A stretch of DNA of 64,000 nucleotides, taken from assembly GCA_036172245.1 (NCBI GenBank), contig JAYWIR010000072.1, positions 1 through 64,000 of the forward strand, given 5' to 3'. Made by a program: the position numbers and the translations under genes. Below, piece by piece: positions 1-57,494 of this stretch. Source of the DNA: Raillietiella orientalis. Lineage: Eukaryota. The notes beneath the pieces were generated by a model. It searched no databases and was not told the DNA's origin. It was given only the letters and a program-made list of their open reading frames with translations. How positions within the stretch are numbered: the first letter of the stretch is position 1; each line of letters starts with the position of its first letter.

Positions 1-2395
1 CGTCTTATCACAGTAGTGAATGCGGACGCAAAGTTGTAATCCAAGTTGTGGGCTGAGCGTTTGGGTCGGGTGGCCGCTTCCGTGGTGAGTCCCGAGCAGA
101 CCTACGCTGTTCCCGGACGAACCATGGAGGCCAACCTGCTCCTCGCCAGCTCATGGTGGCAGTTGCGACAACGCGTTGCACAGGATGGTCAAGGGAGCCT
201 CGCACTCCCCTCTGACCAAGAAGATCAAGCAGAGGGTGGGATGGACTCGGCGGGAGCCTTCACCGTCGCGGTCGATTTCCACAAAGCATTCGACTGTGTC
301 GATCAGGATCTCCTTTTCGAGCTCCTGGAACGCATGGGTTTGCCGGCCGTGCTCCAGTCTAACCTGCGATCCTGCTGGCGCAACGCGTATATCAATATTG
401 GTTCCAGCGGCCGGCACGTGTACGGCGTGCCAGTGCGACGCGGCATCCGGCAGGGTGACAGCCTGAGCCCCATGCTCTTTAGCATCTACTTTGCGTTGGT
501 GCTAAGGGCATACAGGGTAACTCTGGCAACTCTGCCGAGCTCGTGTGCCGGCACACCTGTTGTGTCGGCCTATGCAGACGATCTTCTGCTGCTGCTTCCC
601 GGGTCCATCCCGGCGAGTGCGCTCGAGGAATTCTTCGAGTTGCTGCGCCGTGGGACGGGCCTGGAGGTGAACAGGGCGAAGTCGTCTATGGTGTTTGTTG
701 GCTCGGCGTGGGCTGAACGGTCGGACTGGATCCGCTTTGATATCCCCACGGGCAGGTGCTTCAAGTTCCTTGACGTTCCGTTGAAGAACTTCTGCGTAGC
801 GGAAGTCTGGTCCGACCGTCTCTAAAAGGCAGCGTTGGCGATCGGTCCGTTCCAAGATAGCAAGTTCTACTTGCAGGAACAAGCCGCGGTGTGGAACACG
901 TTTCCGGCTTCCCTTCTTCGCTCCCTACTTCTTGTGTGCCCCGCCTTCTATTTTATATGAAAAAGAGCAACGGGCATCTTAAGGACAGTCCTTTGGGGCA
1001 AAGGGAGGTCCCGTGTGAGGCTCAAAGACTTGTGCGCTCCACGTAAGGACGGAGGACTTGGCATACTTACGCTGGAGCGCATTAAATTACAACTCCGCTT
1101 TAGGACTCTATCTCTGGCGGCAGAATTGTGGGACACGCCTTGGTGCATTCCAGCACGCCTCCTGGCCCAACGAGCCTGCGGATTGGATGGACTGTTGTCG
1201 TTTCTACTGGCGCGCGATCGCAGAGAAGCACACGGCGGCTGTCTCCTGCGTCTCATGTGCGTTGTGGTAAGGGAGAACGCCTGGATCTCCTGCCTCCCAG
1301 GTAACTACTCTGCATGGCTGCACGATACAGTGTCCACCTGTGTAAAGATCCACGTTCCGGCGGGCACAAGAAACACTTGCCTAAAAAGGGACGCCCGCTG
1401 CAAACTGCAGGAGATCATGCAGTCCCACGATAAACTTATGTGGGCCCTGATAACCCCCCTTGCCCCAGTGCTGCCCTTCTTAATAAACGCCAGGGACAGT
1501 AGGAAGCTGGGGAAATGAACCGTGTCCTGCACCATTGGCGGCAGGACACAAACGATTAAGGCGTGGACATCTCGGCAGCTAGCGGACGCTGCGACACCGA
1601 GTGTCCCGCTCAACGGAATTCGACGCTGGGGCGAGCTACTCGGACTATCTCCGGAGGAGATGAAGTGGCCTCCAGAGTCCTGGAACAGTGCATTTCTCCC
1701 CCTTAAATGGTAGGAGGTGGCGTTGCTTGTAATACATTGGGGCTTACCCTGTAAAGTACGCCTGTATCACTCAACCCGAGGAGCCGTGGATCCCCAGTGC
1801 GACCGGTGCGGGGAAAAAGAGACCTTTCCCCACCTTCTACGGGAGTGGGGTGCCATACGCCCTTCATGGGATCGCCTTGCGGCGATCCTGGATTTGCGCG
1901 GATGTGGCCCTAAGGACGTTATTAGGCGCCTCTTCTGTAGTGACGCCTTGTCCCCTCCCGCTTATGTAGCAGTCCTCTGCTGCATTCGAGGGATCGTGGA
2001 GGCTTGGAGCGCTACCAGAAGAAGACGTCAGCCAACTGGCAACGCCTCACGTTTCACTCGCCTATTCTTGCGAGCTGTTTGCAAGTGGCGCCAGTTAGGC
2101 GCAGAGAGGACTAAGCTTTTCCGTATCCTTAATAGGATCTAGAGGACCTATCCTCGCGCACAGTGATCTCTTCCCTGTCCTCCCACCCCTGAAACATTTG
2201 TTCCCTCGCACATTTCAGCTTTTTGTTTGTTTTTGTTTTTTCTTTCCCAACCCCCGCGCATTGGAAGGACCTCGCCGGCATAGTGTCGGCAGCCAGCAAG
2301 CTGTTTTGATGTGGTGAAACCTCGGGTTCTCCACTCCATAATGTATTGCGCTTTTGTTTATTTTAAATGAATGCCCCCGCATATCCGGGCGAAAA
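1..2395 (+). mobile_element. L1/Tx1-like LINE (subfamily A): decayed ORF2 from RT to C-terminal Zn finger, plus 3' UTR; 5' part outside window
   Basis: RT motifs VDFHKAFDCVD, RGIRQGDSLSP, AYADD (46-825); CDRCGEKETFPHLL finger (~1800-1840); several in-frame stops; family 3' end ...catatccgggcgaaaa at 2395. Confidence 0.95.
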
Positions 2396-3370
2396 CTCAC
2401 CCCGGAACTCACAGGTTCTGCACCCGGGCAGGAACACTCCATTACGCGCAGCACGGCGGAGGCCGGTGGCGACCGCGCCCTCCAGCCCGTCGTGCTACTT
2501 ACTGCCCGCTCGCTGGCTGAGGCGAGCAACACGGCCTCGCTTTCCCAGTCGTGATAAGGGCGATCGCGTCTTCTCTTCGTGACGTGCTGTAACGTCAACG
2601 GTCTCCAACACGACGAGAAGAGGCGCTTGTGGCTAACGCTCTGCGCCCCTTCGACTTGACGCTCCTGCAGGAGATTCACTGCATCTCAGAAGAGCAGGCT
2701 GCCGAAATCGAACGGCACGCGGCTGGAAGGCTACATTATAGTTGCGGCGTCGCTTTTCTCCTACGAGGAACTTTGGCCGAAGTGGTGCGCAGCGTTCGTT
2801 TCGACACGGAAGGTCAAGTGGGACAGCTTGTACTCAAGTGGTCAGACTTGGATTGAAAGGATTAAGATTTTCGGTACCGTTCAGAGCCAGTAGATCACTC
2901 GTTCTCACCCTACTGTGGCGCATCTCATTGCGGGAGACTTTAACGTCTACCTGCTGACCGAGAATAGCGCACACAAAAGAGAAAAGTTGCTAGCGGAAGA
3001 GATGTGCGCGTCCGTGCACGCGTGCAACTTGTTCGCTAGCAACCCTGTTATGGCAGCAACGCCGGACTTCGTATACCTTGATGAACACTTGCTATCTCGA
3101 GTAGGTCGGAGAGGTCCCGTACCGTCTGTGTTTTCAGACCACAACAGGCTCGAGTTCGAGTTGCTTCCGCCAGGCAAGGGGCGTCCAATCTGTGTTTTAA
3201 ATATTCCGGCAGACTGGCTAAGACAACCGGAGGAGGCGTAGCATCCTCGCCAGTACCTTTGTAGCTTCGCTATAACTGATCTTTCGGACTGGTACGAACT
3301 AAAAAGATCGGTCCGCAAGTTTTGCTGCCGGTTTCCCTCGCACTAGCTTTCGCGCGGCTTCGGAAAGGGT
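2396..3370 (+). mobile_element. LINE fragment: ORF1 C-terminus plus APE endonuclease domain, interrupted at the GFG site
   Basis: LLQEIH, GVAFLL, IAGDFN, FSDH motifs in ORFs 2629-2856 and 2915-3241. Confidence 0.9.
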
Positions 3371-4706
3371 TTTTCATTCGGGAAAGCCGGGGCTTTTATT
3401 ACTAAAATTTTGACATTACATAATTTTGTAATAAAGTCAATGTTGTTAAAATTTTCGTTTTTACGACGTCAGAAGTTCAGTTCAGAAGTTTAGTAGCACT
3501 TGTCCTTACCGACCCGGAGGCCGATAAGGTCCTTCACTGGCGCCGGGACGAAAAAAATAAAAGAAAACAAAAACAAAAAAAAGAAAAACGCCTGGAGGGC
3601 AAATGTTTTTGAAGTCGGCGCCAACGGCACGCTTTCTCCAAGGAGATCGCTGCCCAGTGAATGGCATTCCGGCTGGTCCTTCCTCTCCTAGACGCGGTCC
3701 ACTTCTCCAGGATACCGCGTATGCAGCAGAGCACTGCTACGCTCCCGGAGGCTGGCAAGCCGTCTCGCGTCAGGAGGCGTCTGAATAAATTTTTCGGGTC
3801 AACCTCCGGAATGTTGAGGATCAACGAGAGTCTGTCATACATTTCGCGGAGGGCAACACACTCCAGAATCAAGTGAGGGAAGGTCTCCCTTTCCCCGCAC
3901 TCTGCACAACTAGCATCCACATTCCCAATTGTCCAGCGAGACAGGCGTGCTCTGCTTAAAAGTCCCCAGTGGAGCAGAAGCAACGCCGTCTCTTGCCACT
4001 GCAGGGGAAGGGTACCGTTGTCCCATCACGCTGGGGGCCACTTCACCTTTTCCAGAGGTATACCGAGCAGCGCGCCCCAGCGTAAAAGTCCGTTCGGCGG
4101 GACACTCGGGGTACTAGCATCCGCTAGTTCCCTCGGCGTGCACGCCTTCAGTGACTTTTTCCTGCCTCCGATGAGGCAGGACACTTTCCACGATGCCTGT
4201 TGGTGGCTGTCCCGAACTTCCCTGAGGGAGGGCAGCACTGAGGCAAGGGGGGTGAAGGAATCCCACAGAAGTTTCCGTGGGTTGGAAGCGATCTCCTGGA
4301 GTGGCTGACCAGCGTGCCTCCCTCTGCGGAGACAGTAGTAGTCCTCATCGCTGGTGCCATTGATCTTCGCCCATGCGGAAACGGACTCCTGAAGCCAGGT
4401 AGTCCAGTCCGCTGGGATGCAGGAGATCCAAGGATTGTCTCTCAGAAGGGCAACCAAATTTCGCAGCTGATATCCACAATGGTTCAGGCTGCGTTCGTTG
4501 GCTACCAGGATTGAAGTCAATCCCAAGCAGCCGGTTAACCTGTGAGCAAGGAGTGTTTCCGGTGCACACCAGGGTGCTGTCCAAAACTTTGCCACAAGGG
4601 CAAGTTTTCTGGATTGAAGCTGTCGCTCAATGCGTTTCAACGTCAGGAGATCAAGTCCACCGTCCCTGCCTGGAGCGCACAAGTCTTTGAGACGGACGAG
4701 GGGCAC
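3371..4706 (-). mobile_element. LINE subfamily B, 5'-truncated (ORF2 C-terminal part plus 3' UTR)
   Basis: DLCAPGRDGGL...HWGL...CAECGERETFPHLILEC; near-identical to 47506-48900. Confidence 0.93.
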
Positions 4707-6508
4707 TCAAGTGGTCCGACTCGATCGATCTTGTTGTAACCAAAGTGTACGCGCCGAGCGGTGCTGGACGAGGGGCCGAAAAGATTGAGTTTTTCGGTAC
4801 CCTTCAAAGCCAGTGGCTGACGGGTCGGACTGCCTTCGGAAGGTAGAGTGTGCACTTCGCATGTTCTCAGGAGGCGAGTTCGTCTTGCCGGAACGGGCCA
4901 GCATCTAGAACGCCTTCGTTGCCAACCTTTTCCGCTCCCTGTATTTTGTTTGTCCACCCCCCCAGGAAGTCAAATTCTGGGCGCAACGCCTTCTACGCAA
5001 AGTGTTGTGGCGCCCTGCAAGATCCCGCGTAAGAATTAAAGACTTGGTGGCGCCGCGTCAGGATATAGGCTTGGGCATCCTAGACTTGCAAAGCATCGAT
5101 CTGCAGGTGCAGTTTCAAATGCTGGGGCTCTGTGCCAAGCTGTGGTGTACGCCGTGGTGCTTACCCGCACGCCTCATACTAAGGCGCTGCACGGGAAGCG
5201 AGGGACTGCTTACGTTGCTGCCCCACTTTCGGCATACCAGAATAGGGTTTGGCTTCCCGCTGAGTCAGATGTCCTCACTGCTGGAAGCCCAATGTTAAAT
5301 CTCCTGCCGCCCCATGAACATTTATGCATCGCGGCAGGAACCTTTTTCATCGTGGGTTGCTTGTCAAGGAACGCGATCGGAAGATCTTCGACGCCTGCGA
5401 CTTTTCCTCAGTCATCCAATGGACGAAGTCATGCAGGACAAGAAGAATACGGATCGTCTGGCCGCTACATTACTCGCCGCAGCTCTGTCTGCCCTCAGGG
5501 TAAGCAACGACAGTTGCCTACCGGCGAAATGGGAGTTCTGCACAATAGCGGGAGTGAGTAAGCTCCTCGGCTGCTGGACGACAAAGGAGCTGGTGGAAAC
5601 TGCCACTCCTCGTAATCGGGCGAAGAGCCTGCTTCGATGGAGTGAGCATTTAATTGTAACCCTTGAAGAGATAGTGCTTTCCTTCGTTTGTTTGGAGAAC
5701 TCCGTGTTCCCGTTAAAGTGGAAACAAGATGTGCTGCACTTTTTACACTGGGGCTTTCACTTTAACCGGCAGAGAAGCATAGTTTCCGGCGAAGCCGCTT
5801 TGCCAAACTGTTTGAGGTGCGGGGAGACTGAGTCTTTTCCGCACCTCTTGCTGGACTGCGGTGATCTCCGTGAACTGTGGTGAAGGCTGATTCCAGCCAT
5901 CCTGCCGCAGGGAGGCACTGCCATTGATGTGTTGCAGCGATTCTTCAGCAGAAATGCATTTTCGGTAGGCGCAATTGTCGCAACCTTGTGTTGTGTTCGC
6001 GCCATCGTGAAGGCCCGCTACGCTCTGGAGTTGTCAGCACAGCAAAGTGAGGCCCACCGGTTTGCCTTAGAATCCATGGAAAAGGCTGCTAGGTGACCTC
6101 ATCTCCGTCACGAGGTTAAAGAGGACATCGCCGGCATCCATCGCCGGTTTACAGGCTCTTAAGAACAGCTTAATCCGGTGATCACTACGTCCTGAAGCCC
6201 ACATACACCACTTCTCCGCTCGCCCTGCTTAAATGCCGGTGACATTACTTTTATCCTTGTGCGAACCAGAGTAATCCCAAAGACCCTTGTTCCGGCGTCC
6301 CCCATTGATTTCTTTTTCTTTTGTTTTTGCTTGTTTGTGTTCCTAGTTTCCACACTCTGTTCCGTGTTATTCTGGCCTGCGTGCCAGCAATTTTCTGATG
6401 ATCCTTGTTCAGTCGTCGATTGGGAGCATGGTTCCTAGCTGGTTTATTTTATATAAGTGTTTTCATTTTTATTATATAAAATAAACGCCCGGAGTGATCG
6501 GGTGAGAA
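4707..6508 (+). mobile_element. LINE subfamily C: short EN piece (4707-4830) fused by internal deletion to post-RT ORF2 and 3' UTR
   Basis: KWSDSIDLVVTKVYAPSG jumps to SDCLRKVE; CLRCGETESFPHLLLDC; 3' end aataaacgcccggagtgatcgggtgagaa. Confidence 0.9.
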
Positions 6509-8423
6509 GTCTCTTGCGCTTGTTCTGCAGAGATCACGTGAATCTCCTGCAGCAGCGCAAGGTCGTAGGGTTCCAGAAGAGCGACCATGTCTCGTCTTCT
6601 GCCGGCGTCTATCTTGTTCACGTTCCAAATGGCGATGCGCAGACGACGGCGGAAGGAGATTCCCGGCATTACTGCTGGCTAGACGAAGGTGTGAGGGAGC
6701 CCGCCTCTTGCAAGAGGGGCGTGATATCCATGGAAGTTTTGGCCTTCTCAGGCACCTGAAACACCTGTTCGGCCTCCACATACTCCATCCCTTCCTTGTC
6801 CGAACATGAGAGTCTCTCGGGCGACGGGTCCCGGGAATTTCCCACGCTCATAGCACACTCGCTTCCGGAAGCCATCTCTTCCCCTTCGTCGGGGAAGACG
6901 ATCTTCCGTAGCTTTGTTGAATTTCGTCCAGCCTTTTTGCGGGGTGCGGTGGAAACGGAGGCTGCGCTTCCAGCCTCCACCTCAGGGTCGGAAGTAGGAG
7001 ACTCCTGAGGGGAGGACGGACACCTTACGGCCTTCCTACTTGCTTCAGAGGGGGCTGGCTGCGACCAGGCAGCCAGCTCCTGCGCCGCACGCGCGAAAGC
7101 TGCGTCATCGATGTTGGTGTCGATGACGGACGCCGCCGCCGGCTCGCTCCCCTCGCTGTTGACAGAGTCAACAGAGGTGTGGTCGTCGGTAGCGGCGAGT
7201 TCTTTCTGGCAGCGTTGGGTAACATCAAGAATGCGTTCCACGACGACGCTGCATTCTTAAATTATCGAGCTACCCTGCTCTTTCTTCTTCTGTTGGTAAT
7301 TTTTTACTCCAATCTTCTCTCCTTTTTGCTTTTTCTTGCCGTTGCCACCTGCCACCTAGGCTCTTGTTTGGTTCCCTCGACTTTATCGGCCTTGATTGCC
7401 GTGGTCTCGAGTGCGCCCTGGGCCTTGGGCGCGGGTGGCACGGCCTTCGCGGCTGCTTTTACCGCCAGCCTTTTCTGCAGCAACCGGGCGCGTTATTCAA
7501 GTTTTCTCTTTGAAACCACCCACACACCTGCTTTGGGGCACACCTCCCCCGTGTGACCCATTGTGCCTTATGCTTTGCACTGCACGTTTGGACACCACTT
7601 TTTGAGGTGGCCCGAGTATTGCAGAATCCGCAGTATTTCGGCTTTCCCATATACCAGAGGTCGACGGTTTCGCCATCGACCACCAGTTTGTGGGGAAGAG
7701 TGCAGCCCTCTTGAACGGTCACGCGTGCAGCCGTGAAGCCGTGCTGCATCCCTGTGTAGTCCTCAAAGGGACTAACTTTCGTCCACAGCGCGTGAACCGT
7801 ATCGTATTGCTCCAACGCGGCGCGAACCTGTTCCTTGCGCATCCGCGCGGTGACGCCTTATAGGTGGACCACCATGCTGCGGTCCACCGTAGTGGGGAGA
7901 AGCCTGCGCGTCCCCATCACCACGAGAGTTTTTAGCTGTGGTTGGGCCAACTTTGCTTGTTTGCAGATGACCTCAACGTACTGACCCCCGCTGCGGATGG
8001 TCATAGCGATGAGCTCCTCCTCCTTAACAACGAGAGCCCGAATCCTTTTCGAAAAAATGCGCGCACTCTCTGAACAGTATAGATTGCCTACTTTGTAGAG
8101 CAATGAGGGTTTAAACCCCTCCTCCAGGTAGGCTGACCATTCCGCAGTGGCTGCAGGCTCTGGCGCCTCCACAACGGTGCTCCACGTTCGCGCTGCAGCG
8201 GCGATCGATTCTTTGGGGGCGGATCCCCCACCTCCATCGTCTCTAAGGACGATGTTGCCGCCGCTTCCTGGCTCTCCATCGCTTCTGGAGGAGGCGCTGT
8301 CACTGCCACCTGGCCTTCCCTGGTGGTCGTTTCAGGCATCGCTGCCTGGTCGACTACCGAACCACACTACGCTTGCACTAAGGGAGACTTTCTGGCACGA
8401 GGAGCACCGAGAAAAGACGTCTG
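6509..8423 (-). mobile_element. LINE 5' half: 5' UTR, ORF1 (gag-like, two CCHC knuckles, frameshifted) and start of ORF2 EN
   Basis: 5' motif cagacgtcttttctc at ~8409-8423; GFKPSLLYKVG, PHKLVVDGETVDLWYMGKPKYCGFC; TAATG overlap at 6669; WNVN...LLQEIH. Confidence 0.92.
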
Positions 8424-8429
8424 CCCTAG

Positions 8430-10562
8430 AGTGCACAAAGTGTTCTACTGCGTAAATTAGGATCTCCTCTTGGAGCACCTGGGTCGCATGGGCTTCCCTC
8501 TTTCCCTACTGACCTTCCTGCGCTCTTGCTGGCGCAATGCGCTATTGAACATCCCTTTCAGAGGTCAAATGGCGTACGGCGTGCCGGTACGGCGAGGCAT
8601 ACAGCAGGGAGATAGCCTCTGTCCCCTGCTCATTAGCACCTACTTTGAGTTGGTGCTAAGAGCTTATAGGGTGACGTTGGCCCCCTTGCCCAACTCGTGG
8701 CCCGGCACGTCCGCCGTAGCAGCCTATGCCGATTATCTTCTGCTCTTTTTGCCGACGTCCACCCTGGCAACGGCTGTCGGGGATTTGTATGATCTGTTTA
8801 GCTGCGGGACCGGATTACATGTGAGCAGAGCGAAGTCGTCAGTGGTGCCAGTTGGTGCGGTGTGGGCAGGGAAGCAGGACTGGGTCCGTTTGGGGATCCC
8901 CATGGCAAGGTTCTTGAAGTACCTTGGCGTTCCTTTGGGAAACTTCTGCGCAGCTGAAACATCGTCTGGCGGTCACCAAAAGTTTGAATTGGCGGTATGC
9001 CCGTTCCTGGATGCAAGTTTTAGTTGCAGGAGCGGGCCATGGTGTAGAACGCCTTTGCGGCCCCCTCCTGTTGCCCCCTACTTCTTGTGTGTGCCGTTCC
9101 TTCTTGAATTAGGACACGGAGAAGGGGCCCCTTACGGAAATCTTTTTGTTGCAACCGGAGTCTTCATGTCCTGCTTCAAGAATTTTGCGCTCTATGCTGT
9201 GACGATGGACTTGATCTTCTCGCGTTGGAGCGCTTGAAACGAAAGCTCCAATTTAGTAAACTTTCCTTTGTGGCAAAGAATAGGCAAGCACTTTGGTATA
9301 TTGCCGCAAAGCCTCTCGCCCACAGGGCAACCCGCTGCTGCGGTTTGACATTAATCCTGGTAACTAACGACCGTACACTGAACCATTGTGGGTTTAAACT
9401 ACGCGATCTGGTCACCCTGGTTAGAGAGAATCCGTGGATCTCCTGTATCCCCGTTGAGTGCATTATTTGGGTACAAGAGTCCGTTTCCGCGTGGGCAAAA
9501 TTCAACGGCTCCAGCGTTGTGGACTTCTCCTGCCTCCGTCGAGACAGGTACAATGGTCAGCCACTGTTGGAGATCATATGCAACCCACGCAAACTTTTGT
9601 GGGCTTCCTCCAACCTCCTTGCTCTTTTGCTGTTCTTCTTCAGGAAAGTCAGTGTCATCCAATAGGAGGCATCGTTGGAAGTGTCGTGCCTCATCGCAGG
9701 CAGCAAAAAACGGATGAAGGCGTGAACGTCTCGGGAACTAGCGGACGCTAGTACCTTGAATGTCCAACCGAATGGACTTGTACGCTGGGGCAACCTGCTC
9801 GACATGGAAAAGGCGAAGTGGCCCTTAGCGTCTTGCGATAACGGCACTTTTCTTCTGCAGTGGCAGGAGACTTCATTGCGGACTTTTAATCAGAACGCAC
9901 CTGTCCCACTGGACATCGGGGTGTGTGGATGCCAACTACGGAGAGTGCGGGAAAAGGGAGACCTTCCTTAACCTAATTCTAGATTCTGTTGTCCTTGGTC
10001 AGATGTTTTTGGATTTACTCTGGTGAGCCCTAACTATTCCGGGGGAAAACCAGAAGAAAATTTTTGGACGCCTGCTGTTGCGGGACTCCATGTCAGCCTC
10101 TGGAGGTGTAGCAGTACTTTTTTGCATGCACGAAATCCTGGATAAGTGGAACGCGTTAAGAAGAGTCCGCACCTGTCGGAATTTTATCCACTGGGCCGCC
10201 ATCTCTTTGGGGATGGCCTTCCGTTGGCGCCGACTTCGAAAACCTTTCAGGCACTTTTTCGCATCCGAAACAGCATGTAAAGACCTTCACACGGCGTACC
10301 GTGCTGCCTTACCTTTTCTCCCCTTCCAAAAACATTGCAATCCTCAGGCGTTTTTTTTTTTTTGGTTTTTGTTTTTGCTGCCCCTGCGTGAGTGTGCAGG
10401 ACCTTATCGGCCTGCTGGTCGATAAGGACAAGTGCGTCCAGACAACGAAACTTCTGTGCTGACCCAAAAAGAAAAATTCAGTTCACATAAAAGAATTTAT
10501 TATGGAATTTTTCTGTGTAAGAAATTTTAATGATAAAAGCTTCGGCTCACCCGGTTGAAAAA
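8430..10562 (+). mobile_element. LINE subfamily B, decayed, from RT motif KAFD to 3' end
   Basis: RRGIQQGDSLCP, AYADY; 3' UTR hairpin ccttatcggcc...ggtcgataagg; terminus cacccggttgaaaaa. Confidence 0.92.
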
Positions 10563-13519: not shown

Positions 13520-16425
13520 TTTCCTTACAACGGTGAAGAGTAGTCCACACAGCATCCTGCCTTGCGAAACTTCACACGGGATGAGTCCTAATAAGGAATG
13601 CCGCGTTCTAAAGGAATAAACCTCTGTTTCTACAGAAATGCAAACTTGCGCAGACTTCAAACCAATAAGAACCGTGCTCAACACTTGCAACGAGATGAGT
13701 CACACAAGTCAAGCGCCCACAGCTTATGAAATCATTTCACTTCAACACATGTGATTCAAACATCCAGGAATCCCAGCTGTAGGAAAGTTTGCTGCCAGAC
13801 GGAGAAGCAAAGCGGGTGCAGACAGGAAACGACAAGCTGCCTACAGCACATAAAAAAACTGTAATAGCAATTTATCGTTCCATGAGGCCACACGGCAAAG
13901 AACTACATGGAGCTTCTCCGAACGTATTAAACGCTGAGTCTCTGCAACGGTTTCCACTCACGAGACGTGCAAGAAGAAATCAGGTTGCTTCGAAAATGAT
14001 GTCCATGGCAGCGCGATAAATCCGAAACATCCGGTCCACAGCTAGAAAAGGATATGAAAACGGAATAGAAAGCAACCGGAATTCGATGAAGTTTCTCTAA
14101 TTGAATCACATGCAGCTGGATGCAACATACTGGACAGTACGAAGCAAGACGCCGGAAGATGTTCTTCTGCTTGAACATCACGAAAAAGTTATCTAAAACT
14201 CCTATCTAAACACTTATCTGCCTTGCGTTATTCGTTTTGTGTTTCAAGCGCTACTCACCCAATATCACTTAGGTGTGCTACGATGATGCTTAATTTTTTA
14301 TAAGATAGGTAACAAGCGTACCGTTTTTCTCCCAGAATCTCAGCAGCTGCTGCGTGTATGCTCTCACCAGATACATGTCCCGATAGATGCACGAGATAGC
14401 CAAGATACCCTACACATCGCTACCCGGTCATCCAGCACCACTTTGCGGAAATTTTGCGTTGTTGAAGCCGTCATTCGCGGAGCGGTTGTCCTCCAAAGAA
14501 GGTAATGGAAACATAAGTAACATTCGCCATAAACCGTGCCCTTGTTCTCCTTGCTTCCAATCTCTTTGTAGTTTTCCAAGCAGTAAAGGGGCGATAGAAG
14601 AGCCGATAGAAGAGCATCGTGCATTAAGCTGTTAGAAGGTTAGATTCGATTCAGTGTTCAGCCTTCACAGTTTCAGTTCTTACAGCTTCATTGGAGCTCA
14701 TAAATTGAAAGTCTCCTGCATCATCCGAAGAATCAGGAACGACCGTTTCCGGCGGACAAACCGGAATAGAACCCAATGCAGCTTACCAGCGAGAGTTAGC
14801 TCACAGCGTTCAAGTACAAAACAAGAAGCAAGAAGAGTAGTAAAAAAAAAGCAAATGAACATTCACTACAACGGGGGCTTTATCGTAAGTGAATAAACAG
14901 AGGAAAGCAAAGTACTCCTTAACACGCAAATGAACGAGATGCTTCAGCTACGAAGCAGACCACCTGAATGTAGAGTCGAAAGTGCCTGAAGATGCTACTG
15001 CACATACATCGACTCATACATGCAGCGAAAAACTAAAAATGCACCAATCTTTAAAGGGAACGGATCATGATCCGAAAGGCTTCCCTGCATAGGCTAGCAA
15101 CTCTTCTACAGCTGAAGTCTTCTAGGCCGACGACAGTCGCTCATAAGTGGAACGCTGGTTCTTCCTGTTAAAAGAAACTAAAGATTCAAGTGAAAAGGAA
15201 ATGATTGCAAACGAGATTTCTGCTGAACGAGGAGAGACGAGCAAGTTTCGTCGATGACGATCCACCAGCAAAGAGTTTGCATTTCAGCAAAGCGTGGTCA
15301 TAAGAGGTTAATCTCTTAAAACTTAGATGTGATAGTCGCTTGGTGAAACGTTGTAATAAAACTCCTGACGCTAAAAATACACAGGGTTTCCCATGACGGA
15401 GACGGATCCATAGGATGCTTGCTCGAAGGGACAGCAGAGTGACTATTCCATTCTCAACGCTTTCAATGAACAAATTCCTCAATAGACTAATAAATAGCCT
15501 TGGAGTCTAGTAAGATGGAGCAGTGATTTCTGGCGATCTTATTTAGATTGTATTCGCAGTTTTTGTCAAGTGTAACCATACAGCAGAGCGAAGCCGTGCT
15601 GAAGCATTCGGTTTTACTCCCGTCAGCAGGAAAGGTGTAGAAAAAAAGGGAATTTAGATCGTGCCATGTAAAAACAAAGAGTTCGACTGCAACAAAATCT
15701 CGTGATTATTTAGAGTTTCTTCATTTTTGAATCTTTCTTTATTTTTCCCAGCGTATCGCATTGAATAGGCGCGTCGCAACCGAGAAGGGTCCGCAACGCT
15801 CGGCTGCCATGCAGAAATCAACATTCTGAGCAGCCTCACGTCTCAGTTTTGCCTCGCATTCGCGGCACAACTCAAAGGCGTTGCCCAGTGCTGCCAGGAG
15901 GGGAGATGTTGCGAGCTTTAGAAATTTTATCATTCGACTGCATGTCTGCATGGCGTCGCTAAAATTGTCTTGCACAAACTTTCTTACCTTTGTCGTCCAC
16001 GATGGTACCGTACAATCCACGTGAACGGTGTTGCCTCGTTCCATTTTCTCCTCCTGCTTGTCAGTTCTCATTTGTCCACCTGTATCACCCTAATGCTTTC
16101 TCCATAAGGCACCGAGAATTAAGAGCTTTCTATCCTTTCCGTCTGTCTTCTCCTCTGTTTCTTTGTTTGGATTCGAAAAGCAGCATGAAACTCACCCATT
16201 CCAAGCATTCGCAGCATTGGTCGAGAGGGCTGTCCGGAGCATCCCGTCAGGCGTGCCTTTTCGTATTGAATTGTACGCAGCAGACGAAAGATGCGTTCGC
16301 GCTCGCGATCGCCAGGATAAGCACGTGGAGCTGTCTTCATGAGGGATGCCAGAACGGGAAGGATCCAACGCTCCATAGGGATTGCGGTCATCGATGGAAA
16401 GCAGTCTCCTCTCCCGCATGTTTTC
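13520..16425. repeat. Left arm of large inverted duplication (pairs with 17902-20390)
   Basis: Reverse-complement collinearity, e.g. ORF 16119-16391(-) vs 17930-18202(+); 13621-13705 vs 20205-20290; ~14840-15250 is absent from the right arm. Confidence 0.95.
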
Positions 16426-17600
16426 CATACCTTAGGCTCGGTAAGCCAAGTGCAAATACTTTTCTACACTTAAATTTCGAAAGCGTTTTCTTCCATTGTG
16501 AGCGATCAGCGGTTGATAGCGTTTCTTTTTTCAGCAGTAAACAGCTGGAAGGAATTATCCAGGAGCTTTTCGCCCGTAACGTCTTGTCATCTGACGCGGA
16601 GATTTATTCTCTCTTATTCCTCTGTTGGCAGTGAAAGCCGAAGATAGATTCAGAGGCATCCTGCGCGGTATCTTTTTCTGTAGAGGAGCCGTATCGCAAA
16701 AACCTTTTTTCGGACGCAACTAGGAGGAGTTCGCAAAGACGCTTGCGAAAATAGATAGGAAAAAGTCTCAGATTCCATAGGCGCAACTTCTCCTTAAATA
16801 TTGGAAACTATCTGCTTGAGTTCTATTTATTTTTTCTTCCTCTTTATTCCATTTGATTTTTTCTAAATGAGTTGGTTTCTCTGGCGAATGGTTTTCGTCT
16901 GGGAAAATGGTCCGTAGCACGCTCAATCAGCAGAATTGAATTCTGCAGGCGGGAAAAGACCTTTTGATTTTCCTGTTGATTGTTTTTCCTTTACGATTTA
17001 TCTTCCGTTTCCGCAACAACTTCTCTGACCTGACCAAGTAAGAATACGCATTTTGGAGAAAAGTCTCCCCGATCCATCATGATGAATATATTTCCATTGC
17101 GAAGCAATCAAGGCCTATTCGACCTTTTAATAGAGAGTTCTTATGCTTAAATTCCATATGATATTCCTAGAGATCAATTGACTTTGCGAGATGCGGAACA
17201 CGCTGCTTACAGAGGAGTGTCTAGCCAAATTGCATTCTGCGCGCAGGAAGTCATTTGGCAATTCCTCAGAGGACGGAACAACTCACATATGACAGATGCA
17301 CTCACCTCCAGCTGAGATTTAGGGGGAGTGGTGGAAAAGATTAGAAAACCAGCTAATGCTGAAATCACGAATTCATTTTTTTCTTGCCTCTTTCAGTGCC
17401 ACCGCACCTGTGAAAAATCGAAGGTTGTTTGGAATGCACCCTGAGAGTGCAAACACAGATGTGGAGAGGCGTGTGGACTAGAGCATGCAGAAGTTTACAC
17501 TTTTTCCAGCACAGTACGTGATTTTAATCCGAACAGGAGATGAAGCTCATGCTGCCGCAATGCTGTCAACTCCTCGTTTCGGAGGTGAATTCCTTCATGC

Positions 17601-22039: not shown

Positions 22040-23230
22040 TGGCAAACACGGAGGCACGCAGCACGATGGAGGCCGGTGGAGAACGTGTCGACCAAACAGT
22101 TGTGCTACACACTGTCCTCTTACCGGATAAAACTAGCAAAAAGCTGGCATCCTCTCAGCAGTAGTGAGAGGAATCGAATCTCATCGCTATATGTATTTGC
22201 ATTCTGAAACGTCAACGAACTGCAGAACGGCTAGAAGAGGCGACTGTTATACAATGCCCTGAAGTTGTTCCAGCTTGTGCTCCTGTAGGAGGTGCACGTA
22301 GTCTACGAAGAGCGAGCTGCCAAAATCGAGAAACGCGCTGAGGGAACGCCACCTTTGTGTCGCAACGGCGTTCGCTAGAGATAAATTCGAGAAAGCAATG
22401 CGTGCTTTCGTTACAAGTGTAGACGATTAGAACAAGTTATCGTCAAATGGTCCGAGTCCATCGATTCCGTAGCTACAAACGTCTAAGGGCCGTGTGGCTC
22501 TAGCTGCCTTCCCAAAAGAATCGCATTTTTTTACAAAATGCAGTTTCACTGGCTGAACAGCCCATAATAGCCGCACATTTTTGCAAGTCATTTCAAATTC
22601 CTCCTGCTTTCGGACGACTGGATCTGCCCGAGAAAGTGCTTGCTAGCAATCGAAATATGCGCGTATGTGCACCCAGCCAACTTCATGGACAGCGAACCTG
22701 GGATGAAAACATTGCTATATCATTTTTTCACCGATGATAAACTGTATTCCCGCGTAGGAAGGAGAAGAAGAATGCCATCTGAGCTGTCGGATCACCACAG
22801 ATTGGAGTTCGACCTTCTCATCTTAAGAAAGGGACCTCTGTTCAACAACAGGAGGCTGCCAAGGAAATGGATTAGCTATTCGGAGGCGTCGGATCATTTT
22901 GTCAGCACCTTTGCGACTTCGTCTTCAGGAAACTCTTGGACTGTGACCATCTCAAACGATTTGTCTGCAAGCTCTGCAGCCGATTTCCTTTCAATCGCCT
23001 TCCGTGCGATTCCGGGAAAGGGATGGTCAACAGCAGAGAATTTCGGTAGGCTCTCACCTTTTCTAGAATTGAGGACGTCCAGCATCTCGCACCGTAAAAG
23101 GCGAGAACCGAGTACCAAATCTACTAGGCTGGTTCAAATTGCATGCCCGACGACTGGGACCGGAAATGCTCGACCCCAATCAATGTTTAGCAAATACATT
23201 TTCCAGGCTTTAGCCTGATGGCGGGAACGC
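22040..23230 (+). mobile_element. Old, heavily decayed LINE fragment (ORF1 end, EN, linker)
   Basis: Similar to 2440-3370; SRVGRRRRMPSELSDHHRLEF. Confidence 0.8.
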
Positions 23231-23239
23231 TTTCCGATT

Positions 23240-24165
23240 CTTGGAGCCCGAGGCAATGCTCCTGGACTCCAAAGAGCAAGCTGAGTGCAGCGTGACTGAT
23301 GCAGGGGACGGTTCTGCACCTCAATCTGCCGTGCTACTGGTTGATGCCTCGCCGGATGGAGCGAGGAACGCTCCGCCATGCTCGACGCCGTAAAGAGCGG
23401 ACTCGCATCTTCCCTCTGCGTAGGCGTGTCCTGTTGGAACGTCAACCGGCTGCAGGACGCAGATAAGTGGCTGTTGGTAGTCAAATACTTGAGCGACATT
23501 GATCTGGTCCTGCTGCAGGAGACACAGGACATCTCCAAACAAAAAGTGGACGATGTTAAAGTCCGAGCAGGCAAGATGCTCCATTAACAGAAAGGCACCC
23601 AAAATTCTTGTGGAGTCGCATTCCTTGTTCGGAGCAGGGTTGCGAAGGCGGTGTGGAACATAGGTTTCGACGGGGAAGCTCAACTGGTTCGATTCAATTT
23701 ATCTTCTCGTCACGAATGTGCATGCGCCGAGCGGAGCGGTGCGTCGTTCGGAAAGACTACGGTTACTCGGAAGTCTTCGTAGCCACTGGCTCAGCAACTC
23801 TGTCCTAGACGTGGCTCACCTCGTAGCCAGGGACTTAAACGTCCACATGCTATTTGAGAGGAGACGCCATCTGTGAACGGGTGTCTGAGCTTCTGTGCAC
23901 GCTCCGAATTTGCTAGCCCAAGATCCGGGACTCCGCCGGTTGCCTGACCATGGGTTCCTTGACGAACACTTGCTCTGTCGGTTGAATCGAAAAAGTCCAA
24001 TCCCGTCCGTGCTTTCCGACCGTGCAGGCTGGAGCTTGAGCTTGTAAAACTTTGCAAGGGTTTTCTGACGTACGTCTGGAGGAAGCCGTACGAGTGGTTT
24101 AGCATTCCGGCTGCTGCAGAGAATCTCTGCAAGAATCTGCGGGGCTTTGACGTTTGCGACCTTCG
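23240..24165 (+). mobile_element. Decayed LINE fragment (ORF1 end plus EN)
   Basis: SCWNVNRL...DLVLLQETQ; AHLVARDLN; PDHGFLDEHLLCR...PSVLSD. Confidence 0.85.
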
Positions 24166-28488: not shown

Positions 28489-31227
28489 ACGCATCCCGTG
28501 CTCGAGAGCGCCGCCCGAGCGGGATGTTTCACGACTCTTGCTTCCGGAAGGCGCAGCAGCTATCCGGAGGTAGGAGAGAAAGTCCATCGACCAGCCTTTC
28601 ACGAAGGGCGATATCATCTCAGCCAACGGAAAGCTCAAGAGGTGCAAGGCACCAGGGGAGGACGGCCTGCCGGCGAAGTTTTAGCATACTTTCGCGGCAG
28701 AGCTAACTCCCCTGGTACATCAACTTACCTTGCTGATACGCAAGACAGGTGACGTTCCTACTCGTTCCGATCGGAAAAGGTGCGGTTCCCCACTAATGGA
28801 GATCTAAGGAGCATGAAAAACTGGCACCATCACAATGGTGAATGCTGACGCCAAGTTGCTAGCCAATCTTTGGGCATAGCAAATGCGAATGGTTGTAAAC
28901 GCCTTCATCAGCCCGGGGCAGACATGCACCGGGCTGATGCATCGCGTGCATCACGCAGGAGGTGTTCACGTGCGATGCCTGGAGGCAAACCTGTTTCAAG
29001 CTTCCACATGGTTAGAGCTCCAACAACGAAGGGGCTTATTGAGCAACCGGAATTCCAATGCGTTCGTCGGTGGAAGTCGGGATGGTCGGGTGGGGGAGAT
29101 AACCCTTGCGGTCGCTGTCGACTTGCGTAAGGCATTCGACAGCTTCGACCAGAATCTCATGCTGGAGCTTCTGGAACGCTTGGGCTTCCCGGCCTCTTTG
29201 TTGGCCTACCTGCGCTCGAGATGGCGCGATGCACTCATTAACGTCTTCTTCAGCGAGCAAACCGTGAACGCCGTACCGGTGCGACGCGGCATACGGAAGG
29301 GAGACAGACTGAGCCCCTTGCTCTTCAGCGCCTTTTTAAAATTGGTGCTGAGATCGTATAGGGTGACTCTGACGCTCCTGCCGCGCGAATGTCCCAGTAC
29401 ACCTGCGGTTTTGGCATACGCGGAAGAACTGCTGCTTCTGCTACCTATGTCCGCCCCGGCTTCGGAGATCGAGGAGTATTTCGACCAGCTGACTCGTGGA
29501 ACAGGACTAACGGTGAACAGGGCGAAGTCGACCGTCATGCCAATCGGAGAGACGTGGGCAGGGAAGCAGAACTGGGTCCGTTTGTGGATCCCCACGGTGA
29601 GGTACTTAAGGACTTTGGTGTGCCTTTAGGGAATTATTCCCTTGCGGAAACGTGCTCCGGCTGCCTTCAGAAGGCTCAGGGGACGATCGACCCGTTCCAG
29701 AACGGAAGTTTATTCCTTCAGGAACGATCCGGCGTGGAATGCGTTTGCGGCTCCCCTGCTCCGTCCGTTGCTTTCTGTTTGCCTTCTACTCTGCGGGATC
29801 AAGGAAAAGGACGAAGGAGCTGCTAAGGATCGCTTTTCGGGGAACAAGAAGACCCTGAGTCCGTCTTTCGGATTTGTGCGTTCTTCGTCGAGATGGTGGT
29901 CTGGGCCTCCTAACGCTGCAGCGGCTGGAGCTTCAGTTCCAGTTTCGGATAGTTGCTTTAATGACAAATAAGTGGTAATCCCCCTGGTGCGTCCCTGCAC
30001 GTCCCCTCGTCGAGCAGAGAAACCAAGGGAAACTTGGGAATCTCGTCCTACTTTGCACTTCGAAGACCGAAATGCCACTGCAAAATCCAGCTTCAGAGGG
30101 CGGCCAAACAAGTAAAGACCAACATGAGATCGTTCTTCGTACGCTTCGCGAACGGTACTGCCTGGCTGCCGGAAACCTTTCGCACGTGGGCAATGACTCA
30201 AGAGCAGAGCCCTCAATACGAGCAAATAGCTCTTTTCCGACCGCACGTCCACCGCACGCTCCGAGAAATCGTCCAGGATCCCCGAAGTGGAGCGTGGGCA
30301 CAATGAACCTTCTTTGCTGCGGTACTGCCTACCCTACGGGATCATGTATGAAGCGACATCGCGGCACAATGGGAGGTTGCTGTTAAGATCGCCAACAGGA
30401 TAAAGAAGATCGGTGATTGAAGAACGGGCCGGCTGACCAACGCTGCGACTCCGAGGACCACCCTAAAATGACTGTTGCGCAGGGGCGAGCTAATGAATGT
30501 TTTGGAAGAACATCGCGAGAGGCTCCCGGTGCTCATGGTCTCGAACACTGTCCCAATTAAATGACAACATTCGGCACTGCTAGTGTTGCATTGGGAACTT
30601 CCCTGCAACTCCCGCGACACCACTGGTCGCAGGGGGGTGTCAACCCTAATTGTGTGAGGTGTAAGGAGAGGAAAAATCTCACTCACCTGTTAGTGGATTG
30701 TATTGCCCTTCGTCCCTTGCGGGAATTCTTTGCCGCGGCCCTGGGTATCTCCGGAGGCAACCCCTGAGGCGCTTTTCGCCCCTTTTTCGTCTAATTCGCT
30801 TTGCCTACAGCGGCCTGGCTTGTAGCTTAGTGCTGCCTACGCGGGATCGTCGTGACACGGAGCAAAGCGACACGAGGATCCAGAGACGGGCATGCCACCG
30901 TGTATGCCGCCCGCTTCCTGCGGTTGAGGACGCGATGTCCCATCTAAAGTCCTCCATTCAGCAACAGCTTACCGGCATCCTTTACAGGATGATGGACCCT
31001 CTCAGCAGGCAGTGTTCTTTTTCCGCTCCCTCCCCAGTTTTGTTAATTTTTTTGTTTTCTTTTTGTTTCGTTCCCCCTCCCCTCGGCTGCCTAGGTCGAC
31101 CGCGCCGGTCGGCACTACGGTAGCCCGGCTTGCTGATACTTTCTAGGGCGTGGCTGTACTGCTGGTTCACTCACAGTGTAGATAGGTTTATTTGACAAAA
31201 TAAACGTCCCGGCGAAGCGGGATTCAG
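28489..31227 (+). mobile_element. LINE subfamily E, ORF2 from linker and RT to 3' end, decayed
   Basis: VDLRKAFDSFD, RGIRKGDRLSP, AYAEE; homologous to 49736-51304 plus 56812-57474. Confidence 0.93.
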
Positions 31228-31378
31228 TCGAGCGCCGATGCCTGCATGAACGCAGGAAGCAGAAGCAGAAACTTTTCGGCATAGGTCGACACGGCATGGG
31301 TGCCAGGACATGAGCTCGGTACGGTGCCAAAGTCTCCTTGTATGCTCTTAGCACCAACTCAAACTAGATGCTGAAGTT
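31228..31378 (-). mobile_element. Short RT fragment (YADD region)
   Basis: ELVLRAYKETLAP...AYAEKFLLLLP. Confidence 0.75.
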
Positions 31379-31379
31379 C

Positions 31380-32264
31380 ATGACAGCGATGTTGCGGCGA
31401 AGTGGGCTTTCGAAGCAATCATCTCCGGAAAAGAGAAGAAGCTGGGAGAGTGGAAGTCGGGCCAGTCAACAGATGCTGTGACCCCGAACACGCCTCCCAA
31501 TGGACTCCTGAGCGGGATCGCGCTGCTCTATTTTCCGAATGAACATCTAAAATGTCTTCGTTGCTAAGAAACAAGTCCACGCTTCCGTCAAAATGACAGA
31601 AGTCGGCTCTACTGTTGAAGCATTATGGACTCCATTGCAACACCCGCCGACACCACTGGACCTGAAAGCGGTCGATGCCAACTGTGTAAGGTGTGAGGAA
31701 CAAGAATCCATCCCCCACCTCCTAGTGGATTGTGTTGTTCTTCGTCCCCTTTGGTTCCGCTTTGCCGTGGCCTTCGGAATCCACTGCGGCAACCCCAGGG
31801 ACTCTTTAAAAGCCTTATTCGTTGCCGACGCCCTCCGGCCAGCGGCCTCGAGAGCCGCCTTGTGCTGCCTTTGCGGGATTATTGCTGCATGGAGCATGGC
31901 CACCGAAAGACCATGCGATGAGGAGGTCATCCAGTGAGCGCCCCCTTTCCTGAGGAGGGCATCGCGAGTGCCAAATATGGATTCGCTATTGCACAAAGAG
32001 CTTGCCGGCATCCTGAGAAGGATGATACGGTCCCAGCAGCAACAGTGATATCTTCCCGTACCCTCCCACTTTTTTTGTTCTTTTGTTTAATTTTTTGTTT
32101 TACCCCCTTCCCCGTGCTGCCTAGGAGGACTGAACGGGTTTGCGAACCGTTGATCCGACAGGCTCCGCGTTTCTTCGTGCGTGGCAGGAGCATTGCTGCA
32201 GCCACTGTCATCTTCTTGTAAAGTTTATTCTTAAATAAACGACCCGGGAAAATCCAGTTGAAAA
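31380..32264 (+). mobile_element. LINE 3' part (Zn finger plus 3' UTR)
   Basis: CVRCEEQESIPHLLVDC; gtttattcttaaataaacgacccgggaaaatccagttgaaaa. Confidence 0.9.
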
Positions 32265-32288
32265 TCAAATCCTTTACGCGCGTTAGGA

Positions 32289-33424
32289 CAGGCGTATTTT
32301 CTCGTTGCTCCTTGTGCCAGAAACTTTGCCTAGGTGCAAGCATTGTGTGGTTCGGTGGTCGAACAGGCCTGAGAAGAACAACAGTGAGTGTCAGGAGGTG
32401 GCGGCAACGTCGTTATCAGTGGCGATGAAAGTGCGGGCATCGGCACCCACATTGTAGTTCCCCGCTGCAGCGCGGGTGTTAAGTGCCGTCGTAACGACAC
32501 CATTACCGGCAGGATCGGTGGAATATTCAGCCTATGTGGAGGAGGGGAACAACCCCTCACTGATCTACAGGGTAGGCAATCATTAATGTTCTAAAAGCGT
32601 GCGCCAATTCTCGAGAGGGATGAATCCTCTCAATGTACAAAAGGAGGAGCTCTGCGCTTTGACCATCCGCAGCGGGGGGCAGTACGTTGAGAGATCTGAA
32701 AATACGAAGATCTGGCCCAACGTCTGACCAAAACCAACGTGGTCATGGAAACAGGCAGACAGCCTTCCGGTCCCCATTAAGACGGACCCCAGTATGGTGG
32801 TCCACCTTTTAGAAGTGACCGCGCGAATGCCGATAGATTGAGTACGCGCCGCGTTGGGAGAACAAGGCACGGTCCATGCAGTGTAAACCAAGCCTAGTCC
32901 TTTCGAAAACCATACTAAACTTCAATGCGGCTTGATGGCTGCACGAGTAACCATAAGGCTCTACCCTTCTTCACAAAATGGTATTTGTTGGCGGAAGCGT
33001 CGATCTCTGGTACGTGGGAAAGCCCAAATTCTGTGACTTCTGCAACGAGTCGGGACACCTCAAAAGGAGATGCCCCAACGTACAGTGTCAAGTATTCGGG
33101 ACAATGGGCCACACAATGGAGGTGCTGTCAAAAGCTGCTGTGCGTAGGGTTTCCGTAAGGAACCTAAAAAACGCTTCCAGCTAATACAAAAAGGCTGGCC
33201 GCAAAACCTGCCGCTAAAGCTGTGCCACCCGCGCCCATGTTTCAGCACTCACTTGAAACCGCGGCAAAGTACGCCGAAAAGGTAGAGAGAATCGGCGAGG
33301 AACCCTGGTAGCAAGGTACAAAACCGAAAAGTTGGAAAGAGAAAGCCGACTAGAAAAGAAACTCGCCCACTGAAAGAAAATATAAGAGGGTAGCGAGATA
33401 AGGAAAGAATGCAGCGTCGTCGTA
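32289..33424 (+). mobile_element. LINE 5' UTR plus decayed ORF1
   Basis: 5' UTR homologous to the 8423 and 49668 copies; VDLWYVGKPKFCDFCNESGHLKRRC. Confidence 0.88.
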
Positions 33425-41865: not shown

Positions 41866-43030
41866 TTGTCACCCGGGTACGCTTGGAGCGTTGATTTCAA
41901 AAAAACTCTCTACCATCGGTGGTATGAGGTTCCACTGCGGCCTTAGACACGCCACTTGTCGAGACACCAGGACGCAGCCCGACGTGGTACTCCCCGACAG
42001 CAAAAGGGGATAAAGGAAAAAACAAAAAGAAAAATCAAAGGCATAAACAAACAGAAAAAAAAAAAAAAAATTTGGAGGGAAGGGAAGTGATCACGGGACG
42101 CTATGAAGAGGGCCCATCCGTCGAAGGAAGCCCTCTAGGTCTGTTCGCATTCTTCCCAGATGTGGCCATCGGGCAGCTCTCCGCAAGAAGCGTACTGCGT
42201 GCTGGAAGACTTCCCTCTCGTTCCAATCTACATCTTCGCTGCTGGCATCGCTCCATGCCGCCACGATGCCTCGAACGCAGCACAGGACTGCAAGGGCTGC
42301 TGCTGGCTGCAAGGCGTCCCGCAGGAAGAGGAGGCGGAAAACGTCTCTGTGTTCACTGCCCGTAGGGAGCCCGAGGGTCGTCCCGAACCGTTCGCAAAGG
42401 GGTAGGAGGGCATCACAATACAATATAAGGTAGAGGAGCGACTTCCCCTCCCCGCACCTTGCACACTCAGGCCTTACACTTCCCCGCGTCCAGTGGAAGC
42501 GGCGCGCGTTGCAGGGTAGACCCCAGTGCAACAGTAGCAGCGCCGTCTCTTGCCACTTTAGAGGAAGAAGCCTGGATCCGATGAGAACTGGAGGCCACTT
42601 CAGGTCATCCTTCGGGATGCCGAGCAGCTCAACCCATCTCAGAAATTCACGCGGGGGGGCACTAGGGGTCGTGGCGTCTGCCAGTTCTCCCATGGTCCAA
42701 CCGCTCATCTTTTTTTCTTTTCCTGCGATTCGGCAGGAAACTTGTCACTTTGGCGTCCAGCCGCTGGTTAGCGCCTACCGTAGGAAGAAAGCGTCGAACC
42801 TGAAGGGGTGGTCTTCGCCTACGTGCTTCTTGCGGGACAATCCAGAGTGCTCCGTAGGGTGCAGCAGGCGTTGGGGCCGAATCGCAGGCGGTTGCAATTT
42901 TCGGTTCCTGGGTTGTTCAGGTTGGCCCACGTCGCAACGGATTCCTCCAGCCATGCGGAGGAGTTGGCGGCGCTGCATAACGTCCAGCCGTTTTCTTTCA
43001 CTAGGGCTTCGATGCGTCCAAGGAGGAGGC
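41866..43030 (-). mobile_element. LINE subfamily D, 5'-truncated 3' part
   Basis: ORF 42091-42708 closely matches 60340-61000; CARCGEGKSLLYLILYC. Confidence 0.92.
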
Positions 43031-45640: not shown

Positions 45641-45645
45641 CGAGT

Positions 45646-49665: not shown

Positions 49666-49667
49666 AG

Positions 49668-51304: not shown

Positions 51305-51559
51305 TTTACACCCGGGTGCGCCGGGGCGTTTGTTTCTTTAATAAAAAAAAAAAAAAATAAACAAGCAAGTGTAGGGCTATCTCCCCTACAGTGTTCAGAA
51401 CATGTTCTTCTGAACTCGCCGAGTGGGCAGCACGCAGGTTCCCAAGGTCGACTCGGCAGCGGAGGGGGAAGGGACAAATAGAAAAAAACAAAAAGAAAAC
51501 ACTATTTACAAAAGCAGAGAGGGGTTGGGGAAGGGATCACGTTCCGCTGGAGACGTCCT

Positions 51560-56730: not shown

Positions 56731-56811
56731 TTCTGACATCCCCCGACCACTGATGCACCGCACTACACCAATAAAGTCGAGCGAGTCAGGAGCGCGCAGA
56801 GAACACGTCTG

Positions 56812-57474: not shown

Positions 57475-57494
57475 TGGAGATTCCGGAGCGTCGA

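Follow-up and report, generated by a model that had tools for sequence, protein, structure and literature searches.

LINE 5' heads of one subfamily adjoin antisense reverse transcriptase at its KAFD codons in three junctions of a Raillietiella orientalis contig, possibly by repeated landing

Site-specific long interspersed elements (LINEs) are known for ribosomal RNA, small nuclear RNA (snRNA) and transfer RNA genes, telomeric repeats, microsatellites and one DNA transposon. Keno/Utopia-type elements insert into snRNA genes and SART/TRAS into telomeric repeats, and Tx1L inserts into the Tx1D transposon, a case in which a mobile element is the target. Target-sequence-specific LINEs with an endonuclease of the apurinic/apyrimidinic (APE) type include the Tx1 and R1 groups (compare PMC4640811, PMC5035012, PMC7265360). 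In green algae, Zepp and Zepp-like clusters are described as GC-rich islands of mutually nested LINE copies (PMC3446292, in part). For nested human transposable elements, the relevant sections of Levy et al. (2010, PMC2836564) report that insertions concentrate at particular target positions, a bias suggested to inactivate the target, and that L1 insertions into L1 show a sense bias (21,559 versus 9,899) and A/T-rich nick sites. Here we analyze a window of 64 kb, i.e. positions 1 to 64,000 of contig JAYWIR010000072.1 from Raillietiella orientalis, in which one subfamily of LINE 5' ends (heads) is joined three times, head to head, to antisense reverse transcriptase (RT) sequence at the codons of the KAFD motif. 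All counts, junctions and comparisons refer to this one window of eukaryotic DNA. A literature search found no LINE that targets the conserved RT coding motif of other LINEs.

According to a tblastn map, positions 1-10561 and 22208-64000 consist nearly completely of fragments of one LINE group, which are nested mutually and include numerous 5'-truncated copies. As reference we used a nearly intact LINE at 51305-56815(-), which has its head at 56811, followed by open reading frame 1 (ORF1) and an ORF2 of 1203 codons comprising APE and RT domains; the K of KAFD is amino acid (aa) 583 of this ORF2. The LINEs of the window are of the APE-type, as ORF2 matched Exo_endo_phos at 59141-59986 (E = 5.4e-18). 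The reference element matched RVT_1 (E = 3.6e-10 and 2e-6), and comparison of the ORF2 RT with PDB entries retrieved the RTs of R2 and human L1 ORF2p (E = 4e-11 to 2e-8); a protein search with the RT half returned a single match. The reference element is itself nested in a 5'-truncated LINE on the plus strand (49737-51304, resuming at 56816-57474; ORF2 aa ~536-1068), with a target duplication of 12-15 nt and without a linker. Its flanks acagtcggcactgct and accgtcgtcgctgct represent this duplication (12/15 matches). It is the sole cleanly resolvable nesting in the window. Altogether, the window contains nine 5' heads, starting with GCGGACGTG(T)TTTCTCG, and 15 LINE 3' ends with the consensus AATAAACGCCCCGGCGCACCCGGGTGARAA.

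Three of the nine heads belong to one subfamily of ~76 nt, which starts with GCGGACGTG and is located at 8424(-), 32288(+) and 49668(+), with pairwise identities of 62/76, 62/76 and 55/76. An nhmmer profile built on these junctions, each taken with 80 nt of head and 25 nt of flank, matched at 8449-8346(-) (E = 4.9e-33), 32263-32366(+) (E = 4.7e-31) and 49643-49744(+) (E = 4.6e-30), while the next match (E = 0.032) aligned from the GCGGACG start only, as is the case for other heads. With E values of 1e-30 to 1e-33, these data bear out the first-pass annotation, which had placed the same 5' untranslated region at three sites with coordinates that are right within a few bases. Its second observation, an antisense KAFD flank at all three sites, also holds, although the third flank, which it had called degenerate, is real but just 14 nt long. 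Indeed, each head meets an antisense LINE RT head to head, and the RT sequence starts at the Arg-Lys of RKAFD (ORF2 aa 582/583). In the tblastn map the flanks correspond to ORF2 from aa 581 at 8432 onward (+) and from aa 579 at 49667 downward (-), and alignment with seven uninterrupted RT copies located the break immediately 5' of the R582 codon, beyond a linker of 9 nt.

At the first junction, the head (8346-8424(-), GCAGACGTC...) belongs to a LINE running left to 6509, which comprises ORF1 and then aa 1-66 of ORF2. The linker occupies 8425-8433 (cctagagtg on the plus strand) and is followed by an RT arm (8434-10561(+), designated c1) that extends from R582/K583 to the LINE 3' terminus and carries 7 stops and 3 frameshifts. 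The DNA beyond 10561 is AT-rich and without a match to the reference ORF1 or ORF2. At the junction at 49668 (copy 7), the head covers 49668-49736(+), the linker 49659-49667 (tgctccaag), and the arm 47506-49658(-) (c7; R582 to the LINE 3' terminus, 4 stops). Neither linker matches the consensus of the seven uninterrupted RT copies or any of the other heads. The 3' end of arm c7 sits within the antisense, K/S-rich ORF1 tail of another LINE; a by-eye reading that had placed this end at the K-G-F-G site discussed below was wrong. When contigs from one sequencing run were compared with positions 47400-50400, pieces of ~200 nt were obtained, none of which spans the junction.

At the third junction, the head is followed by aa 1-263 of ORF1 (32288-33145(+), detected by the nhmmer profile) and is preceded by a spacer at 32265-32287(-), in which the 9-nt linker is joined to 14 nt of arm sequence (cgt aaa gga ttt ga, in antisense). 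The arm is this short because the 3' end of another element, a 5'-truncated LINE designated LINE X (31397-32264(+), ORF2 aa 995 to the 3' end), cuts in at 32264. LINE X meets the arm directly after ...aaaggatttga (K-G-F-D), 14 nt from the first base of the arm, and lies between the two arm pieces: the remainder is found at 31227-31378(-) (ORF2 aa ~640-697, alternatively given as aa 623-697) and is identical to arm c7 at 126/157 positions (80%). LINE X, which is of another subfamily, adds an independent LINE 3' end on the KAFD codons, placed one target-duplication length from the junction. When the 25 nt upstream of the third head were compared ungapped and anchored at the head, 15/25 matched the first junction (P ~2e-4) and 14/25 the junction at 49668 (P ~1e-3; P values from random 25-mers), while five other heads with a clear start reached 4-11/25 against the junction flanks and the head at ~39208 reached 7-9/25 without shifting. 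Unanchored local alignment of the flanks of the third junction and the junction at 49668 gave no significance (p = 0.77) and was superseded by the anchored test. The 23-nt spacer also fits the antisense ALAVAVDL register with 14-15/25 at the best of ~35 shifts, and the K-G-F-G site with 12-13/25; the head-anchored KAFD register was kept because it is free of shift choice. A fourth copy of the junction at ~39208 could not be established, as it reached 12/25 at the best of five shifts (at least 13/25 has P ~0.015; our own estimate is ~0.05).

In sum, the KAFD codons carry three 5' junctions and one 3' junction, that of LINE X, on different elements. They are not the only position of this kind. 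Three of the 15 3' ends (3371, 41866, 60111) adjoin antisense ORF2 aa 305-307 of another copy, two further 3' ends (6508, 34626) adjoin antisense aa 65/66, and the head at 43357 adjoins antisense ORF2 from aa 303 onward with a stagger similar to that of the KAFD junctions. Six of the nine heads adjoin an antisense LINE, two follow a sense LINE 3' end plus a spacer of 22-23 nt, and one follows sense aa 167. Clearly, this LINE group has exact antisense hot spots within the ORF2 of its relatives. The codons for K-A-F-D and K-G-F-G share the motif AARGSNTTYGR, which was picked post hoc; of its nine occurrences in the window, two are in the reference element, exactly at these two sites.

The locus shares features with several described systems. 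Like the target-specific LINEs of the Tx1 and R1 groups, its elements are of the APE-type and join a multicopy target, harmless to the host, repeatedly at precisely the same base. Unlike in those groups, the target is the coding sequence of the relatives' RT and is always met in antisense, specificity is partial, with several hot spots and many other sites, and no element has both junctions at the site. The arrangement resembles Zepp-like islands in that the region is made almost exclusively of nested LINE copies; an exact intragenic hot spot and an antisense rule, both of which are present in this window, are absent from the sections of the Zepp report cited here (PMC3446292). In contrast to nested human insertions, the orientation here is antisense and the motif consists of G+C-rich codons.

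The reading that we favor, with confidence evenly balanced, is that a hot spot on KAFD received antisense insertions repeatedly, and most likely represents a preferred landing site. Each junction would then mark the 5' side of an insertion by ordinary target priming, in which a full-length LINE of the one head subfamily enters a resident LINE in antisense at the RKAFD codons of RT. We infer that the three events were independent and that AAG-GCG-TTC-GA on the host sense strand precedes the nick; the second cut would lie 12-16 nt upstream on the opposite strand, leaving R582 as the first host base beside the incoming head, and the stagger would be the same as at the K-G-F-G site (43357). As untemplated filler would not repeat, homing requires that the 9-nt linker belongs to the element, and it would then constitute the extreme 5' end of the head subfamily itself. 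Full-length insertions are predicted to carry a 3' flank repeating CGCAAGGCGTTCGA, followed by the antisense ALAVAVDL codons. More tentatively, a LINE lineage may home, always backwards, to AAR-GSN-TTY-GR (K-A/G-F-D/G), which relatives could not lose as it encodes the KAFD of the RT active site as well as a linker motif, KGFG. Each landing would cut the resident RT at its catalytic motif and extend the LINE-only island, which might in this way become a self-assembling safe haven that disables older copies.

If the junctions are independent, they would show that LINE-only islands, resembling centromeres or piRNA (PIWI-interacting RNA) clusters, can build themselves without harm to host genes, and they would reveal a naturally occurring APE endonuclease whose target is G+C-rich and defined by codons. 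If they derive from one event, they represent an ordinary composite repeat and warn that recurring junctions within nested clusters should not be taken for homing.

A number of observations weigh against repeated landing. The first-pass annotation had predicted that the upstream half of RT (ALAVAV) follows the 3' ends of the inserted copies; however, 0/15 LINE 3' ends in the window are followed by this half, and among the elements of the window none has both junctions at KAFD together with a target duplication. The 9-nt linker is homologous in all three junctions and absent from the six other heads. All three copies of the head subfamily are at KAFD, and their independence is open to doubt, while the LINE group as a whole is not single-target, since its 15 3' ends lie at many sites and 6/9 heads lie away from KAFD. 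Moreover, 7/10 RT copies reaching K583 are uninterrupted, and four of these seven carry AARGSNTTYGR. The three junctions are of one type, and the KAFD codons behave like a landing site, with the unrelated 3' end of LINE X 14 nt away, but the site is not a general one. The head at 49668 comprises only ~70-76 nt, beyond which homology passes to plus-strand RT starting ~100 nt before KAFD, and this following sequence is not accounted for by homing. Finally, all three hit arms are of one subfamily in their 3' 1.3 kb. Their closest relative in this part is the copy at 3371-4703, which is ~91% identical to the arm at 49668 at codon sites and may be the RT of the head-bearing family itself. The idea that the insertions serve to kill a competitor found no support in view of the RT copies intact at K583 and of these subfamily relations; it is no less likely that the elements nest in dead relatives of their own.

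A somewhat doubtful explanation for the same observations is one ancestral head-to-head junction, formed by a single insertion or repair event and subsequently propagated as a composite. The likeliest route would be retrotransposition in trans of a chimeric RNA in arm sense, in which the antisense head and the linker precede RT from KAFD onward to the LINE 3' end, the 5' truncation being variable. Breakpoint and linker are common to all three copies, and the lack of a matching junction at the 3' ends is in agreement with this scenario, as are the arms of one 3'-region subfamily. Copies c1 and c7 align unbroken through the junction (8357-10435 versus 49735-47633; 72% over 2114 columns). The shared block stops exactly at the LINE 3' terminus of the arm, like a retrotransposed unit, and the head at 49668 stops at ~76 nt, like a 5' truncation. 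Segmental duplication was rejected, since beyond the LINE 3' termini, where the shared blocks stop, the flanks are unrelated. Identity between c1 and c7 is flat along the arm (0.68-0.76 in ten 200-nt windows up to reference position 2000, 0.61 in the last), which looks neutral, and in a tree of the first 800 nt a clade of c1 and c7 was not rejected (approximately unbiased test, p = 0.39). The step in identity across the junction, from 72-82% in the head to 56-68% in flank plus linker, was non-significant (Fisher p = 0.17, 0.055 and 0.14). These three results, too, speak against independent landings. The clade termed 'subfamily B' exists in the 3' 1.3 kb alone; in the RT core, where the tree does not resolve, one of the uninterrupted copies is nearer to c7 (0.85 in a single 200-nt window). 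An argument from the association of hits with this subfamily (4/4 versus 0/7) was given up, since the clade fails in the RT core. The first-pass annotation had cautioned that the junctions at 8423 and 49668 may descend from one event. This caveat holds and is too narrow: because breakpoint and linker are common to all three junctions it covers all of them, and three independent events are unproven.

What speaks against a composite is the pattern of divergence. Differences between arms c1 and c7 are distributed over the three codon positions as 151/139/219 in 613 codons (chi-square p = 2e-5; ratio of non-synonymous to synonymous rates, dN/dS, 0.47), and polarized changes on the ancestral branch shared by c7 and its 91% relative (3371-4703) amount to 8/12/23 (p = 0.015; Fisher p = 0.046 versus the c1 branch). 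The neutral controls are flat, i.e. 33/44/42 on the c1 branch (p = 0.42) and 26/32/35 between c7 and its relative (p = 0.51). On the head side, ORF1 differs between the elements of the first and the third junction by 0.292/0.279/0.46 per codon position (226 codons, p = 0.001). Both sides of the junction have therefore diverged partly as coding sequence. A dead composite should lack codon structure and would not evolve in this manner. Repeated landing is also favored by the position of LINE X, by the other antisense hot spots, and by arms c1 and c7 reaching their own LINE 3' termini (10561 and 47506), beyond which the DNA is unrelated. In addition, the arms look like separate copies of live elements, and none of the disabling mutations within the arm body is common to c1 and c7: their only common frameshift is a 1-nt deletion located 36 nt before the stop, and their only common stop is one TAG that is present in the reference as well, in addition to six private stops in c1 and three in c7. 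The antisense part of the first copy ends at the exact base of the aa 65/66 hot spot, where the 3' end of another LINE is located, which favors reading it as the remainder of a longer element, interrupted at a later time.

Twin priming is the established model for 5' inversions of human L1 and would provide another route to such junctions, albeit an improbable one here. A single RNA would be used per event, and the second strand would prime near KAFD, so that the segment from the head to ~aa 581 becomes inverted relative to the part from K583 to the end. As in the human inversions, two LINE segments lie head to head with their 3' ends pointing outward, the true 5' end of the RNA is at the junction and the arm ends at a primed 3' terminus. 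The constant pairing of head and arm subfamilies, with both sides stemming from live RNAs, would also be explained. However, at the junction at 49668 the RT on the head side and the arm both cover the ~500 codons between KAFD and aa 1068, with ~71% identity and a synonymous divergence (dS) of 1.0. These segments are not from one RNA, and twin priming accordingly fails for this copy; the inverted part of the first copy is visible only to ORF2 aa 66 and is uninformative. Moreover, twin-priming junctions differ from one event to the next, but the three junctions here have base and linker in common. A snap-back origin, with the arm copied from the RT of the same element, was likewise rejected for the copy at 49668 on account of the 71% identity. 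Random nested insertion in a LINE-saturated region has almost no probability left: nearly every flank in the island is a LINE and most heads adjoin an antisense one, but chance is already refuted by three junctions that share a base within an element of 5.5 kb and carry homologous linkers, with anchored flank matches at P = 2e-4 to 1e-3.

Some further junctions were noted. The 3' end at 24166 is located near the aa 305-307 hot spot in a very divergent host. The head at 45640-45646 directly follows a sense endonuclease fragment cut at GDFN (ORF2 aa 167); no other of the nine heads has a coding junction of sense into sense. Twice, a plus-strand LINE 3' end is followed by 22-23 nt and then by the head of another plus-strand LINE (57474-57497 and 32264-32288), suggestive of one target being used in tandem; the spacer of 22 nt in front of the head at 57497 (57475-57496) could be assigned to no LINE position (best match 12 nt, E = 0.04). 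At the aa 305 site, ORF2 up to aa 305 on the plus strand plus the 3' part of an antisense LINE align as one block between 41021-42827 and 59258-61060 (72%). This composite poses the same question as the KAFD junction, namely recurrent landing or a copied composite.

An in-frame TAG located seven codons past the K of KAFD is present in 3/9 RT copies, including the nearly intact reference (53402-53404(-), 8458-8460(+), 49632-49634(-)), while the other copies have CAG (four), GAG (one) or CAA (one) at this codon. It could reflect a recurrent C-to-T change, shared ancestry of the segment or a read-through stop.

The segment 10562-22200 between the two parts of the LINE island is AT-rich (38-46% GC), without matches to the reference ORF1 or ORF2, and contains a large inverted repeat (13552-14835 versus 20359-19084, 72%; 15247-16405 versus 19069-17916, 84%) as well as an open reading frame at 15963-16634 without a Pfam match. 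At the adjacent edge of the island (22208-24154) two endonuclease-region fragments of a far more distant LINE are found, with 27-32% identity to the reference ORF2.

With respect to the elements themselves, knuckles of the CCHC-type (CxxC...GHxxxxC) are seen by eye in ORF1, and zf-CCHC gave a weak match below the Pfam cut-off (E = 0.004; 17.6 bits, cut-off 20.8), as did zf-RVT in ORF2 (E = 9e-5; 23.5 bits, cut-off 27.5). A perfect palindrome, CACCCGGGTG, is located at the LINE 3' terminus directly before GARAA in all 15 3' ends, e.g. at 60111-60142(-), and could form a 3' hairpin that is recognized by RT.

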